From: an uncultured Alphaproteobacteria bacterium
GTDB taxonomy: Bacteria > Pseudomonadota > Alphaproteobacteria > Rs-D84
Assembly: GCA_944390835.1 (NCBI GenBank)
Contig: CALXQT010000010.1
Coordinates: forward strand, 583-64,582
DNA: 64,000 nucleotides
Reading direction: 5' to 3'
Below the pieces are notes generated by a model. That model had not been told where the DNA came from and did not search any database. It was given only the letters and a program-made list of their open reading frames with translations. Both the position numbers and the translations under genes were made by a program. Positions 30,062 to 55,278 of this stretch are shown piece after piece; position 1 is the stretch's first letter; each line of letters opens with the position of its first letter.

Positions 30062-31198
30062 ATGAATAAAAATCCTTATGAAGTTTTAGGTGTTGCTCGG
30101 AATGCCTCGGATGATGATATCAAAAAAGCTTATCATAAATTAGTTATGAAATATCATCCTGATAGAAATCCTGGGAATAAAGATGCCGAAGAAAAGTTTA
30201 AGGAAGTCAATAATGCGTTTGATATTCTAAAAGATCCACAAAAGCGGGCTGCATATGATAGATTTGGAGATGCTGCTTTTGCTGGTGGAAACGCATCTGG
30301 TGCGAACCCTTTCGGCGCAGGTGGTAATCCTTTTGGTAACGGTGCGTTTCATTTTGATATGGGTGGCGGCGCCGGTATGGAAGATATTTTACGTGAGGCA
30401 ATGAGAGGCTTTGGCTTTGATATGGGGGGGGCTACAGGCTCTCGTGGTGCCAAAGCACAGCGAAGAGGGCGTGATTTACTGGACGAGGTAGTTATAGATT
30501 TACGAGATGCTTATTTCGGTAAAGACCATACAGTAAAATTTACAACTAACGTTGAGTGTGAAAAATGTCATGGATTTGGTACCGCGGATGGAAAAGAGGC
30601 CCCAATTTGTTCTAGATGTGGCGGAAGTGGCTATGTTCGTTCTGCTCGTGGTTTTTTTGCTATGGAAACGCCTTGCCCAGATTGTAATGGGCTTGGGCAT
30701 AAAATTGATAAAAAATGTACCGAATGCGATGGTGATGGAACTGTACGCAAGACCAGAACAGTGGATGTAAAAATTCCTGCTGGCATAGAAGATGGTACCC
30801 GTTTGCGTTTGGCTGGCCAAGGAGAAGCAGGACAAAACGGTGCTCCTGCTGGTGATTTTTATTTGGATGTTCATATTAGGCCAGATAAACGTTTTGAGAG
30901 AGACGGATCAGATCTAATAACAAAAGTTGACGTTCCGTTTACTACTTTGGCACTGGGTGGTGAGATAGAAGTAGAAACAATTGATGATAAAAAACTATCT
31001 GTAAAAGTTCCTGCTGGAACACAGGTGGGTGAAAAATTACGCGTGCGTGGTCATGGTATGCCGGGACGGCGCGCAGGTAGTTTTGGAGATTTGTATATAG
31101 ACATTAATATGCCAGTCCCAACAAAATTGACCGAAAAACAAAAAAAGATTTTGACTGAATTTTCAGAAACGAAAAATGCAAAAAAAGGATGGTTTTAA
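30062..31198 (+). CDS. dnaJ: Chaperone DnaJ
   Basis: J-domain with HPD. G/F region. Four CxxCxGxG zinc-finger repeats ([32 protein letters not shown]). Confidence 0.95.
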
Positions 31199-39050: not shown

Positions 39051-39075
39051 TCCCCCCCCGGTTGGGGGATTTTTA
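39051..39075 (+). terminator. Rho-independent terminator after dnaN
   Basis: C8 tract pairing with ggggg (loop ggtt), followed by ttttt. Confidence 0.7.
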
Positions 39076-49514: not shown

Positions 49515-50024
49515 TTAGCCTTCTTTAATTCCTAGTAGTGTAACAATATATTTTATATATTCTATTACCCAGCGTTCAAGTCTTTTTGTTACTGGCATAT
49601 CTGTTAGAGTTACAGGACAGGCAATAATTTCAGTATCTGGTAGTTCTTTGCTTATTAAATATTTTGCGCGGTTCATATGGTCTTCTGTTGTTATAATGAC
49701 CAGTCTTTGTAAGTTTTTTTCTTGGGCAATTTCTTTTATTGCCAGTGCATTTTGATAGGTCGATTTCGAATCGGTTTCTATTGTGACCCGTTGCGCCAGA
49801 TCAAAAGAACCGTTTGTTCCTGCACCTATTATATATAAATCTGCATTGGGGTGTTTATGTAGTTGACGCATTGCGAAAGGAATCCTTCTAATATCGCCAG
49901 TAAGAACGAATATCGTATCATTAGACAATATTTTCTCGCACTTTCTTGGCGCTAATGATTTAAATCCCATTCCGCCGATAACAAAGCACGTTATTAATAA
50001 TAAAGATGGTGTCAGAAGTTTCAT
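49515..50024 (-). CDS. DUF218/YdcF(ElyC)-like envelope protein
   Basis: N-terminal anchor. ..IFVLTGD..YIIGAG..ETDSKSTYQNA..VIITTEDHMNRA pattern. Confidence 0.65.
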   Translation of the reverse strand: MKLLTPSLLLITCFVIGGMGFKSLAPRKCEKILSNDTIFVLTGDIRRIPFAMRQLHKHPNADLYIIGAGTNGSFDLAQRVTIETDSKSTYQNALAIKEIAQEKNLQRLVIITTEDHMNRAKYLISKELPDTEIIACPVTLTDMPVTKRLERWVIEYIKYIVTLLGIKEG

Positions 50025-50863
50025 TAATTATTTTTCAAAATATTTATAGTCGTACGTTTAGTAATCCAGATTGCAAAAATAACAATTGCGATTGGTAATA
50101 AAATAAGTGCAAACCATCCCCAACCAGAAATTGATAGCATTGCCATTAATCCAACGCGGGCACTATGTGCAGCCCCTAGAATTAGTAATAAAATTGGGGC
50201 GGCAACAACGAAGCCAGCCGTACCAGAAACAATACAAATTTTAGCGATAATTATTTGCATTTGGTACGCAACGTACGAGTCTGTAGCACCGATTTGATTT
50301 AGAATTTCTAACTCTCGTCTATGTAACAAAGCAGTATTTCGCGCAATGTATGAAATGCATATAGCTATTGCACCAAGTGTTAACAATAATACAAATGATG
50401 AAATTAAAATCATTTTCCATCCAGCAGATGTAGAACTTTTTAGTGCCTGAGCATGAGTTAAAAATCTTGCGTATTCAGAGATTTCTTTTTTTACAGATTC
50501 TAAATCTTTTGTTGTATTGAATTGCAATTCATACATTTTTGGTAAATAGTTTTCAAGTGCACCGCCCCCAGATATCCACGGCCCCAACAAGTCACGCATT
50601 TGATCTGTTGTAATTTCGTTTACTACGGTTATTTTTTCGGAATTATCATCAATGATTTTTTTTACTTTTTGCGTATTGTCTGAATCCATTATTTGAACTG
50701 TTGCGTATAGATCCCATTGAGAATTCCAGCGTATTACCCCTGTGCCTATTGCAAGCGCAATACCAAATGCCAAAACAGCCAAAAATGTCAATAAAGACAT
50801 AATCGCAGTCATAAAAATTGACTGATCTTTGACTAATGAAAAAACGATTGGTTTTTTTGTCAT
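50024..50863 (-). CDS. ftsX: FtsX-like permease
   Basis: 4-TM topology with a large first periplasmic loop. Directly downstream of ftsE and adjacent with no gap. Confidence 0.75.
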   Translation of the reverse strand: MTKKPIVFSLVKDQSIFMTAIMSLLTFLAVLAFGIALAIGTGVIRWNSQWDLYATVQIMDSDNTQKVKKIIDDNSEKITVVNEITTDQMRDLLGPWISGGGALENYLPKMYELQFNTTKDLESVKKEISEYARFLTHAQALKSSTSAGWKMILISSFVLLLTLGAIAICISYIARNTALLHRRELEILNQIGATDSYVAYQMQIIIAKICIVSGTAGFVVAAPILLLILGAAHSARVGLMAMLSISGWGWFALILLPIAIVIFAIWITKRTTINILKNN

Positions 50864-51704: not shown

Positions 51705-51731
51705 AAAAAATGCGCCATAGGCGCATTTTTT
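51705..51731. terminator. Terminator after pal
   Basis: aaaaaatgcgc-catag-gcgcatttttt hairpin. Confidence 0.8.
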
Positions 51732-52134
51732 ATTCTGCATCAACAACTTTAGTTGTTGCATTTCTATTTTTTGCCCAAACTTCTTCGCCTGTACCAGGGT
51801 ATTGTGGGTTTTCCTTTCCGTATGAAATAGTTTTAATTCTTGATGGTTCAATACCTTCTGCTATCAAAACATGCGCTGCGTTTCCTGCACGTAAAGCACC
51901 TAGTGCTAAATTATATTCTGTGGAACCACGCTCATCGCAATGTCCCTCTAATATAACATCTTTATTTGGATGTTTTTTCATATACAGAGCTTGAGATTCC
52001 AAATCTGCACGAGCCGTGTCAGATATTGCCGCAGAATCAAATGCAAAGAATACTTTATCATCATTTATGTTACTAGGTACACCACTGCAGGCAGCCAATC
52101 CTAATAAAATAAAGGCTAATAGAATGTTTTTCAT
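51730..52134 (-). CDS. pal: Peptidoglycan-associated lipoprotein Pal (OmpA C-terminal domain)
   Basis: RBS gagagga before ATG 52134. Lipobox GLAAC. ..VILEGHCDERGSTEYNLALGALRA.. motif. Confidence 0.85.
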   Translation of the reverse strand: MKNILLAFILLGLAACSGVPSNINDDKVFFAFDSAAISDTARADLESQALYMKKHPNKDVILEGHCDERGSTEYNLALGALRAGNAAHVLIAEGIEPSRIKTISYGKENPQYPGTGEEVWAKNRNATTKVVDAE

Positions 52135-52221
52135 ATTTTTTCCTCTCACTTTTATTTAATAAGTTCTTTATAAGAATCTAGCAGATTTTATAAAAAGTTG
52201 TCAATATATGTTTTTTATGCT

Positions 52222-52250
52222 TTGTCTGGGGGGGGGATTTGTGATATACT
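52222..52250 (+). promoter_or_regulatory. Candidate phase-variable promoter: TTGTCT - 17-nt spacer containing G9 - (TG-n-)TATACT
   Basis: ttgtct at 52222-27. G9 at 52228-36. Spacer ends with tga at 52242-44. tatact at 52245-50. ATG of the OMP gene lies at 52277 with RBS aaggaagga. Confidence 0.5.
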
Positions 52251-52276
52251 TTTTTAAAAGTAAAAGGAAGGACAAT

Positions 52277-53002
52277 ATGAAAAAATTAATATCTTTGGTT
52301 GCTTTATTAGGGGTAACAACTACTGGGGCTATTGCGGCGCCAAGTTATTTAACGCGTGATAATAGTGGTGGTTATCGTGTAACATATGATTATACAGATA
52401 AAGCGAAAACTGGTTGGTATGTTGGTGCCCGTGCGGATTTTAATTTTCTAAACTGGGAAAATAAGTATAGCCTTGATGATGGTCTAAAAGGTCCTGAGGA
52501 CTTTGAAAACGATAAATATTCTTTTGAACCTGTTTTTGGTGGCAGTGCTTTCGCTGGTCGTCGTTTTGCATACTTCTGGCGTGCAGAATTAGAAGCAGGT
52601 TATATGGGATACTTTGAAGATAAGGATGCATCTTCTGAATTTTCGTTGCAAATCCCTTACGTTATGCTGAACGGTTATTATGATTTCGTAAATGGCATCT
52701 ATTTGGGGGTTGGTGTCGGTGCAGCAGTGCCTATTACAACAATTGATACGGTATATTCTAGTGGTGGTGAACGTAAAGAGTATGGGGTTTCTCCAATGGC
52801 TGGTGTGATGCTAGGGTATTCTTATGAATTAGATAACAATTTAGTACTAGATTTACGTTATCGTCTGTCTGGAATGACTGGTTTAGATCAACGCATAAAT
52901 GATATTGAAGTTAAATATATGCCAGGTGAACATTGGTTCCAAAATGATATAGATTTTATTTTAGATAATTCTTTATCAATTGGTATTAGATATGAATTTT
53001 AA
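52277..53002 (+). CDS. Outer-membrane beta-barrel protein (Omp25/31-like)
   Basis: Signal ..GAIA/AP. Beta-strand periodicity. C-terminal ..IGIRYEF. Related in pattern to the 5511-6122 protein. Confidence 0.7.
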   Translation: MKKLISLVALLGVTTTGAIAAPSYLTRDNSGGYRVTYDYTDKAKTGWYVGARADFNFLNWENKYSLDDGLKGPEDFENDKYSFEPVFGGSAFAGRRFAYFWRAELEAGYMGYFEDKDASSEFSLQIPYVMLNGYYDFVNGIYLGVGVGAAVPITTIDTVYSSGGERKEYGVSPMAGVMLGYSYELDNNLVLDLRYRLSGMTGLDQRINDIEVKYMPGEHWFQNDIDFILDNSLSIGIRYEF

Positions 53003-53023
53003 CCAAAATAGGTATTGACCCGA

Positions 53024-53053
53024 TTCGTTGAAATATGATATTATTATGTAGGT
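53024..53053 (+). promoter_or_regulatory. Candidate promoter of the fibre-gene array (TTGACC-N18-TATTAT with an upstream TG)
   Basis: ttgacc at 53024-29. tg at 53045-46. tattat at 53048-53. Confidence 0.45.
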
Positions 53054-53064
53054 AGAGAGAATAG

Positions 53065-55278
53065 ATGAAAAACGATTTGAAAATTTCGAAATTAGCAATT
53101 GTTTGCGTCTTGTGTACTGCTGTATCTGGTGCATATGCTGCTTCATCTGTAAGGTCGTTGGGTGGTAGTGGTACTTATACCAGTGCGTCTAGTGCGGCAG
53201 AAGCGAATGCTTCTTCTTCTGTACGTGGCGGTTCTGTTCGTGTAACGCCTTCGTCTGGTGTTTCAGGTACAAGTACGACTGTAAACGCCGGAACAACTAC
53301 CAGCGGTCGTGTTGCAACAACGCCTCGTTTATCAATAGGACAATATCTAGGTGGAACTACTTCTGTTAGTGGGGGCAGTTCTTTACGTCCGCAGACTCCG
53401 AGTGGTGGTTCGTCTTCTTCTGGTGGGTCTGGTTCTATAGATGAAGAATTTGTTGAAATTTTGCGTAGTGATGTAGATGAGTTGCAAGGAACGGTTGAGA
53501 CCTTACGTCAAAGTGATGAACGGTTAGAGGACCAACTTCTTGATAAGCAAGATGCACTTGTCCCTGGTCAAGATGGTTATATTTTTATAGATACAAATAC
53601 GAATGAAATATTTGTAGAAGTAGATGCTTTAGAAGAAGCATTGAAAGATAGCTTGCAATTATCTGATGGTAAGGACGGCCGTGAAGTAGAATTGGGTTAT
53701 AACGAAACAGAATTGTTGTGGCGTTATAATGACGGCAGTCCGTGGGAACATTTGATATACAAATCTGAAATTACTGGTCCGCAGGGACCTCAAGGTGAAA
53801 AGGGTGAAAAGGGTGATAAGGGTGACAAAGGTGATCCAGGTGATGCGGCGGATTTGAGTAATTATCCTACATTAGCGCAAATGGACTCAAAAATTGCGAC
53901 CGCAATTGCCAGCATTGCCACTACTTATGCAACCAAAGATGAATTGGCTCTAAAGGCTGATAAAACAGAGCTAGCAGCTTATGCTACGACAGAGCAATTA
54001 AATGCGAAAGCGGATGCAACTGATGTAGAAGCACTAGATATGGTAATAAATGCGGCCGGTACAGGTTTGACTGCCCAAGTAAATAATGCTTTGCAGGTTG
54101 CGGGTGGCGCGCAAGATATGGCAGAAGCGGCCCAGAGTACAGCAGAAGCAGCTCAGGGTACTGCAGAAGCGGCTCAAGCTGCGGCAAATGAAGCCAAGGC
54201 TGGTCTAGCGACAAAAGCAAATGCTGCGGATGTATATACCAAAAGCGAAGTTTATAATAAGCAAGAAATAGAAGATAAGGTTGCAGAAATCGTTGCTGGT
54301 GATGGTGTTGTATTAGAGGGATATGTAAAGAAAGAAGATTTTAATAGTGCGATTAATCTTAAGGCTGATACAACTTATGTAGATCAAGAGTTAGATAAAA
54401 AGGCAGATGTAGTATCTGTTTCTGCACTTGAAACAGAAGTCGGTGACATAAATGATCTTGCTATTAGTGCTGCAGAAGCAGCCACGCAGGCAATCAATGA
54501 ATTGGATTTAAAAGCCAGTAAAACAGAATTAGATAGTTATTTGAAATCTGATACAGCGGCTTCTACATATGCTACTAAGGAAGAATTGGGGACCAAGGCG
54601 AATGCATCAGACGTACAAACAATTACTGAAAGTGTTACGAATATAACACAACAGGTTAATCAGATAACAAATCCGGAAACGGGTTTAGCTGCTCAGGTTG
54701 ATGATGCGGTTTCTGCAGCTGAAGGGGCTCAGCAGGCGGTTACAGAAATGCAGGGGGACGTAAATGCATTAAAGACAACTGTTGGCAACGAGAGTTCTGG
54801 TTTGGTCAAAGATGTTGCAGATGCTGTGTCTGCGGCTGGGGCTGCCGTAAGTGCTGCAGAAGAAGCAAATACTCTTGCTGGTAAGGCGGAATCTGATGCT
54901 GCAGCGGCACAAGCAAAGGCTAATCAGGTAGAAGAAAATTTAAATTTGAAAGAAAATTTAAGTAATAAAGTCTCAAGTATCACAGAAGGTAATCAGAATT
55001 CTCAAGATGCATATCCGTCTGTTGGTGCAATTGTTAAATGGACTGATACTAAGATTGAAAGTTTATCGGATTCAGGTTTACCTGTAAATCCTGATAACTT
55101 TAATGACAATTCTATTAGTGGAACCAAGTTAGAAAACGATACGGTAACTCAAGGGAAATTGTCGCCTGATGTTCAGCAGGTATTAAATAATGCTGTGACG
55201 GTTGACGATAATGTCGGCGCAAACAAAGTGCTGGGTACTGATGATACAGGTGCCAAAGTATGGTATGATATAATTTAA
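53065..55278 (+). CDS. Fibre protein 1: exported, S/G/T-rich N-terminal region, coiled-coil segments, collagen-like GXY run, A/T/E-rich stalk
   Basis: Signal ..SGAYA/AS. GPQGPQGEKGEKGDKGDKGDPGD. Repeated Y(A/V)TK.EL..KAD boxes. YPSVGAIVKW and LPVNPDNFNDNSISGTKL boxes. 737 aa. Confidence 0.8.
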   Translation: MKNDLKISKLAIVCVLCTAVSGAYAASSVRSLGGSGTYTSASSAAEANASSSVRGGSVRVTPSSGVSGTSTTVNAGTTTSGRVATTPRLSIGQYLGGTTSVSGGSSLRPQTPSGGSSSSGGSGSIDEEFVEILRSDVDELQGTVETLRQSDERLEDQLLDKQDALVPGQDGYIFIDTNTNEIFVEVDALEEALKDSLQLSDGKDGREVELGYNETELLWRYNDGSPWEHLIYKSEITGPQGPQGEKGEKGDKGDKGDPGDAADLSNYPTLAQMDSKIATAIASIATTYATKDELALKADKTELAAYATTEQLNAKADATDVEALDMVINAAGTGLTAQVNNALQVAGGAQDMAEAAQSTAEAAQGTAEAAQAAANEAKAGLATKANAADVYTKSEVYNKQEIEDKVAEIVAGDGVVLEGYVKKEDFNSAINLKADTTYVDQELDKKADVVSVSALETEVGDINDLAISAAEAATQAINELDLKASKTELDSYLKSDTAASTYATKEELGTKANASDVQTITESVTNITQQVNQITNPETGLAAQVDDAVSAAEGAQQAVTEMQGDVNALKTTVGNESSGLVKDVADAVSAAGAAVSAAEEANTLAGKAESDAAAAQAKANQVEENLNLKENLSNKVSSITEGNQNSQDAYPSVGAIVKWTDTKIESLSDSGLPVNPDNFNDNSISGTKLENDTVTQGKLSPDVQQVLNNAVTVDDNVGANKVLGTDDTGAKVWYDII
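53776..53847 (+). repeat. Collagen-like (Gly-X-Y)x8 coding tract built from imperfect 9-bp tandem units
   Basis: ggtccgcag ggacctcaa ggtgaaaag ggtgaaaag ggtgataag ggtgacaaa ggtgatcca ggtgatgcg. Confidence 0.9.

Follow-up and report, generated by a model that had tools for sequence, protein, structure and literature searches.

The stretch of DNA analysed here (the window, 64,000 nucleotides) derives from Candidatus Enterousia (Alphaproteobacteria, order Rs-D84), an uncultured gut bacterium with an assembly of 816 kb and 37.8% GC. Members of this genus are gut metagenome-assembled genomes of <1 Mb, and all members of the uncultured order Rs-D84 have reduced genomes (PMC12306168). In the window, a pal-like gene on the minus strand (51730..52134), which encodes a 134 amino acid lipoprotein of the OmpA family (Pfam OmpA PF00691, E = 5e-21), is divergent from a plus-strand gene for a 241 amino acid outer-membrane β-barrel protein (OMP; 52277..53002), and four fibre-like genes lie downstream of the latter. 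The pal-like gene was also called with 134 residues in other assemblies and is positioned upstream of the OMP gene in 76 of 79 related loci, with the gene order pal, OMP, fibre-1 kept in 67–76 of these. The related loci are from species-representative genomes of chicken, ruminant, mouse, human (Hadza) and wild-animal guts, with record titles of either Candidatus Enterousia or uncultured Alphaproteobacteria. This documents a conserved pal/OMP/fibre arrangement, in which each part has a separate conserved promoter.

The OMP has a classical signal peptide at its N-terminus (MKKLISLVALLGVTTTGAIA) and ends in RYEF at its C-terminus. An AlphaFold2 model (pLDDT 76) displayed an all-β barrel with a strand-only core, and the matches from a Foldseek search with it include the OmpA transmembrane domain, NspA, Ail, OmpX, OprG and OpcA, with E values of 1e-9 to 3e-5 and a probability of 1.0. 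On the basis of the signal peptide, the RYEF end, the modelled barrel and these structural matches, the 241-residue protein is predicted to be a small surface-exposed β-barrel OMP, and its signal peptide, barrel and C-terminal aromatic residue are those of the 8–10-stranded class that includes the OmpA transmembrane domain, OmpX, Ail, NspA, Opa and OmpW. It scored just below the gathering cut-off of the Pfam Opacity family (PF02462; 20.1 bits versus 21, E = 7e-4) and this near-match is a resemblance at the level of fold only, with no family membership. Identity across the genus ranged from 38 to 77% in an alignment of 11 sequences, and up to 82% in a wider comparison, with the variable stretches positioned between predicted strands. 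The 90% protein cluster of the OMP contains two members only and provided no further strain variants. In one assembly that is otherwise identical to the window (L025:2535, ERZ28613547) and one similar contig, a 26-bp deletion at window positions 52811-52836 splits the OMP gene into ORFs of 199 and 42 residues, reflecting either a naturally occurring null allele or a mistake in scaffolding.

The intergenic region between the pal-like and OMP genes is 143 bp and holds two back-to-back promoters. On the plus strand a −35 hexamer, TTGTCT (52222..52227; genus consensus TTGGAA), is followed by a 17-nt spacer, the upstream half of which is a run of nine guanines (G9; 52228..52236) and the remainder ATTTGTGA (52237-52244), and then by the −10 hexamer TATACT (52245-52250). 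The dinucleotide TG (52242-52243), placed one base ahead of this hexamer, makes an extended −10 element, TGTGA-TATACT (52240..52250). A ribosome-binding site, AAGGAAGGA (52264..52272, plus strand), with blocks of the GGAGG or AAGGA type at the same place in relatives, precedes the OMP start codon at 52277, which lies 27 nt past the last base of the −10. From this promoter, transcription would be expected to begin near 52257. This layout had been described in the original prediction and its coordinates were confirmed to the base. On the minus strand, the divergent pal promoter (52175..52204) has a −35 of TTGACA (52204-52199), an 18-nt spacer and a −10 of the TG-n-TAGATT form (TGcTAGATT; hexamer 52180-52175), which matched the consensus at 10 of 12 positions with the TG present, and its TTGTCAA and TAGCA blocks were conserved in an alignment of 12 species. 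Between the two −35 boxes is a T-rich segment (52205..52221, plus strand), with a T frequency of 0.65–0.95 at index −34 to −29 across 78 species, which may function in the manner of an UP element.

Scanning for consensus promoters gave 9 of 12 matches at the OMP promoter, with a spacer of 17 nt and the TG present. However, across 2 kb the same scan detected seven promoter-like sites against 6.6 expected from shuffled sequences, which is not above chance, and a hexamer match alone proves no promoter. We therefore relied on conservation, and comparison of 78 orthologous Ca. Enterousia loci, anchored on the −10, revealed a nearly invariant extended −10 of TRTGaTATAmT. Here the hexamer frequencies were T(1.00) A(1.00) T(0.81) A(0.94) M T(1.00) and those of the preceding bases T(0.99) R T(1.00) G(0.96) A(0.74), with T−5, T−3, G−2, T0, A1, A3 and T5 being 94–100% conserved. 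The −35 consensus was TTTGGAA, with TTG at index −23 to −21, which corresponds to a 17-nt spacer, and with a run of T further upstream. In 47 species a TTG-type −35 was spaced by 17 nt, and five species had 18 nt and three had 16 nt, while in about 22 of the 78 the −35 was absent and a T-run took its place. The end of the hexamer lies 22–31 nt before the ATG in 68 of the 78 species, and an alignment of 12 congeners contained no indels between −35 and −10, with the T-TG-TATA-T columns invariant. With TG one base upstream, a TATAAT-like hexamer and a suitable distance to the ATG, the OMP promoter shares the features of extended −10 (TGn) sigma-70 promoters and displays no difference in kind from these. 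Because it is conserved across 78 species, and not because it matches a consensus, the element is indicated to be a real sigma-70-type extended −10 promoter that drives the barrel-protein gene, as had been proposed. The accompanying claim that G9 provides the optimal spacing of 17 nt is also supported, and this spacing, found in 47 of 78 species, is the ancestral one for the genus.

An upstream in-frame ATG at 52208 raised another reading of the tract, in which G9 falls within an N-terminally extended OMP coding sequence and slippage would act as a translational frameshift switch. The frame is indeed open from 52208 through the tract to 53002 (an ORF of 264 residues, with the N-terminus MFFMLCLGGGF...), but the extension has no ribosome-binding site, the signal peptide begins at the methionine encoded at 52277 behind the conserved ribosome-binding site, and the region upstream is a conserved promoter rather than coding sequence. 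Furthermore, open frames in relatives are only 7–14 codons longer than the 241-residue protein, and other assemblies call the 241-residue gene. The upstream start was rejected on conservation, ribosome-binding site and signal-peptide position, and we give this reading practically no credence.

The extended −10 motif was also found to be widespread. TRTGnTATAMT occurs 59 times in the genome and 61% of the copies fall within the 11% of DNA outside ORFs, compared with 8% for a permuted control motif, representing a 5.6-fold enrichment in non-ORF DNA. In the 43 copies upstream of ORFs the −35 is weak (T 0.67, T 0.63, G 0.26), and from these copies and the enrichment we infer that promoters in this organism are predominantly of the extended −10 type with a weak −35, which defines a promoter grammar for Candidatus Enterousia. 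In E. coli, it is established that an extended −10 makes a promoter less reliant on its −35 and thereby on spacer length, an effect reportedly seen in several studies. For Enterousia such tolerance would be expected by analogy. The −35 of the OMP promoter is nonetheless better conserved (about 55 of 78 species) than that of the average promoter of the genome, and spacing may for that reason matter more here than elsewhere.

We then assessed how unusual the G run is. The 816-kb genome contains two G/C runs of at least nine, the one in the OMP promoter and one in coding sequence, against 0.5 (order-2 Markov) to 1.3 (order-5 model) expected genome-wide, and roughly 0.05–0.15 expected in the ~9–11% of DNA that is non-coding. 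The coding run (G000 C32:2624-2632) is a C9, or G9 on the coding strand, and lies in a UvrA-like gene where it encodes DLGPGGGAGGGR. Runs of at least eight, among them a coding run of eight at window position 30424, were in slight excess (nine observed versus about 3–6 expected), while runs of at least seven were not (25 observed versus 14–25 expected) and are mostly in open frames. A genome-wide signature of contingency loci was rejected, with no clear excess of long G/C runs, and no homopolymer of this kind was found in any other extended −10 promoter of the genome. The original prediction had called G9 conspicuous in intergenic, AT-rich DNA, and although it is mildly unusual when set against the 0.05–0.15 expected, it is not striking given that relatives already carry G4–G6 at the same place.

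G-richness in the upstream half of the spacer is a property of this promoter in the genus, with a G frequency of 0.32–0.59 at index −16 to −11 across the 78 species, and a spacer G run of at least four in 18 of these, versus 2.5% of random 14-mers from the same loci. Relatives have G3–G6 in the columns of the G9, and G6 is the longest run outside this species, while 50 of the 78 species have spacer runs of 0–2. We rejected G-richness as a general promoter feature, since none of the 42 further extended −10 promoters in the genome has such a patch. Such locus-specific enrichment could be explained if the G patch were all or part of a binding site for a regulator of the OMP and/or pal promoter, with G9 being the form that the site takes in this species and its length mattering only through that site, and its location 24–32 nt from the pal −35 is consistent with this. 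However, neither the sequence nor the exact position of the patch is conserved, as the 50 species with runs of 0–2 illustrate, it lacks both dyad symmetry and a second half-site, the analysis yielded no candidate for the regulator, and the closest relative (G008) has no G patch. A regulator site is consequently improbable.

In a gap-free register, the window sequence GGGGGGGGG aligns with GCAGGGGTG in L031, GGTTGGGTG in L039 and TGGGGGGTG in G021, and among the nearest relatives (L026, L027 and G008/L030) the run is G5, G6 or missing altogether, making G9 specific to this species. As G9 fills columns that are occupied in relatives by GCAGGGGTG or TGGGGGGTG at the same length, it probably arose by substitution at constant spacing. 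We envisage that two or three base substitutions filled an ancestral xxGGGGTG patch with the spacing unchanged, and that selection to keep the ancestral spacing of 17 nt would then hold the length at nine. Nothing indicates selection of the G tract for a role as a contingency locus.

The original prediction proposed the G tract to be a phase-variation switch, giving stochastic control of the barrel protein, and had itself named an invariant tract length across strains as a finding that would count against this. Exact-protein look-ups yielded six further contigs with the locus, drawn from five accessions (L021–L025), these being the ENA assemblies ERZ17292900, ERZ16268290 and ERZ24773521, Logan ERR4096601 (L024), and ERZ28613547 with a second similar contig. 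All six contain G9 and an unchanged 143-bp intergenic region, so that at consensus level the tract is invariant between strains, albeit in a small sample in which the locus may be a single haplotype. Two of the contigs represent a lineage that is 1% diverged, with 48 SNPs and no indels in 4.8 kb, and this also retains G9. No lineage SNP falls within 51809-53168, and for this reason both lineages may share one recent haplotype at the OMP locus. The SNPs are instead clustered, with 19 within 187 bp (53169-53355, the N-terminal part of fibre gene 1) and 20 in 49809-50291, in a pattern that looks like recombination patches.

It had also to be considered whether the run could have arisen artificially during sequencing or assembly, for example as the poly-G that two-colour chemistry produces. 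Beyond the general tendency of such platforms towards poly-G nothing points to this, whereas the run is internal with unique flanks and is identical in the six other contigs, which stem from separate studies and were built by different assemblers (MEGAHIT-type k87, SPAdes NODE, scaffolds and Logan). We regard an artefact as exceedingly unlikely.

As a control for length change we used a terminator hairpin at 39052-39072 after a dnaN-like gene, which holds the one further long G/C tract that the window has between genes. This is C8..G5 in the window and four other assemblies but C9 (plus a T)..G7 in L109 and L110, with both arms longer in the diverged lineage, amid three SNPs in 1.4 kb. Since the control tract differs between the same lineages, G/C tract length changes on this time scale and the change is visible in consensus assemblies. 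With G9 found in every assembly while the control tract changed, the proposed switch is unsupported at consensus level. Consensus assemblies do hide minority alleles, and the assemblies here are few, with some at 2.6x coverage and some perhaps sharing samples. Two pattern scans of JGI metagenome contigs, using exact flanks with tracts of 5–16 nt, gave no match, and the species is apparently absent from that collection. A clonal isolate of T. pallidum had G9 in about 80% of its tprL poly-G tracts and minorities of G8 and G10 (PMC7864442), and an invariant consensus does not therefore exclude slippage.

Slippage also depends on the repair background of the cell. mutS is present in this genome and in all 25 congeners searched, while mutL was found in 25 of 25 congeners and is missing only here (G000). 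The position of mutL in the closest relative maps exactly between two contig ends (C48:1 and C4:5342), with a gap of about 2 kb, and its absence thus appears to be an assembly gap and not a deletion. Loss of mismatch repair was rejected as a source of hypermutability, and the organism is probably proficient in this pathway. Nine guanines would nonetheless be at the threshold for slippage, and rare G8 or G10 cells probably arise. The original prediction further held that such variants would weaken the promoter, and while some dimming is to be expected, a large effect is doubtful. RNA polymerase would rely mainly on the extended −10 here, and because of this element, the weak −35 boxes genome-wide, and the orthologues that have 16- or 18-nt spacers or no −35, a change to G8 or G10 should alter expression modestly, acting as a dimmer at most rather than switching the gene off.

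Comparison with known systems frames how these observations may be read. Expression of N. meningitidis porA is reportedly governed by a G tract in its promoter spacer, with promoter strength set by the spacing. The likeness to this gene, in which a G homopolymer between −35 and −10 sets the promoter strength of an OMP gene (PMC7864442), is direct, and the poly-C tracts of opc and fetA in the same species belong beside it. However, porA tracts differ among strains (about 9–11 G or more) and give graded expression, whereas the Enterousia tract is invariant in available assemblies. Likewise, meningococci possess dozens of such loci (PMC5084427), whereas this genome has no clear excess. A further likeness is to T. 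pallidum tp0126, which encodes an OmpW homologue and has a poly-G separating −35 from −10, with transcription being optimal at 17 nt (PMC7864442). Both genes encode small β-barrel OMPs, have a poly-G in a promoter spacer with an optimum of 17 nt, and belong to host-associated bacteria whose genomes are reduced (~1 Mb). For tp0126, though, measurements revealed tract lengths that differ among isolates as well as inside them and reporter activity that depends on the length, and the T. pallidum genome has many other poly-G loci. The Enterousia tract, by contrast, showed no length variant, has no counterpart elsewhere in its genome and belongs to a promoter of the extended −10 type.

A spacer switch or dimmer of the porA/tp0126 type, in which G9 would slip to G8 or G10 at high frequency, change the spacing to 16 or 18 nt and lower OMP expression, so that OMP-high and OMP-low cells would coexist in the gut with G9 (ON) dominant in sampled populations through selection, is a tentative possibility and the main rival reading. 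In the form of a low-frequency dimmer it would escape notice in consensus assemblies. In its favour, the spacer that holds the tract belongs to a verified promoter for a barrel protein exposed at the cell surface, the spacing reaches its optimum of 17 nt with G9, and nine exceeds the length of about eight from which G/C runs count as hypermutable (threshold from PMC5084427). In N. meningitidis deep sequencing, homopolymers of at least eight were predominantly variable (PMC5084427), the tp0126 and porA precedents show strong effects, tprL is likewise dominated by G9 with minor variants (PMC7864442), and the 26-bp deletion allele, seen in one data set, hints that loss or non-expression of the OMP is sometimes favoured. 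Also as in that class, G9 lies within an OMP promoter, here one defined by conservation in 78 species. Against this reading, no length variant appeared in the six further contigs from five accessions while the control G/C tract did change, and G9 is unique to the species, with relatives at G6 or below, so that evolution has left no mark of a contingency locus being maintained. A small effect is predicted by the extended −10 and by the orthologues with altered spacing or no −35, mismatch repair is apparently intact, and the genome has no other promoter homopolymers.

On balance we favour, with moderate confidence, G9 being a fixed-length, G-rich segment of the spacer of a genuine constitutive-type extended −10 OMP promoter. 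A surface-exposed OMP beside fibre genes is typical cargo of a contingency locus and counts against this fixed-length reading. We also considered that G9 might be a nascent contingency locus, with a genus-wide G-rich spacer having crossed the slippage threshold in one species to give OMP-high and OMP-low subpopulations in the gut, and judge this to be rather unlikely. Should the tract slip, Neisseria- or Treponema-like stochastic control of a surface protein would occur in a non-pathogenic, uncultured gut symbiont with a sub-1-Mb genome. It would be the first phase variation by simple sequence repeats in Rs-D84 and would show how substitutions within a G patch that was already there can give birth to a switch. 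Switches of this kind are well known, and this would at most be a new member in a new clade. Under the fixed-length reading, the locus is a counter-example, a textbook-looking spacer poly-G that is length-invariant in all available assemblies, and it cautions against calling phase variation from tract position and length alone.

We finally considered the fibre genes, as the original prediction had also raised the possibility of read-through from the OMP promoter into the fibre array. No terminator-like hairpin was found after the OMP stop codon, and a degree of read-through may occur. However, a separate promoter for fibre gene 1 lies directly after this stop codon (53015..53044, plus strand), with a −35 of TTGACC, an 18-nt spacer and a −10 of TG-a-TATTAT, and transcription from it would start at about 53051. 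It was detected by consensus scan and is strongly conserved, as at least 54 of 78 species have TTGACCCGATTCGC...TRTGATATTAT behind the OMP gene. For this reason the G tract is unlikely to control the fibre array, and read-through is improbable as its main control. The 14-mer TTGACCCGATTCGC is near-invariant in more than 50 species, and conservation that extends beyond the −35 hexamer suggests a candidate operator.

A separate G tract was observed within the fibre-1 coding sequence. In three other Enterousia species, a G8 run lies about 100 nt into the fibre-1 orthologue (L049:2375, L062:2390 and L077:767), where it encodes LGGAG just past the signal peptide, while the corresponding sequence is interrupted in L048 (GGGTGGGT) and the window has no run there. 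This G8 run is a candidate site for translational phase variation in these three species.
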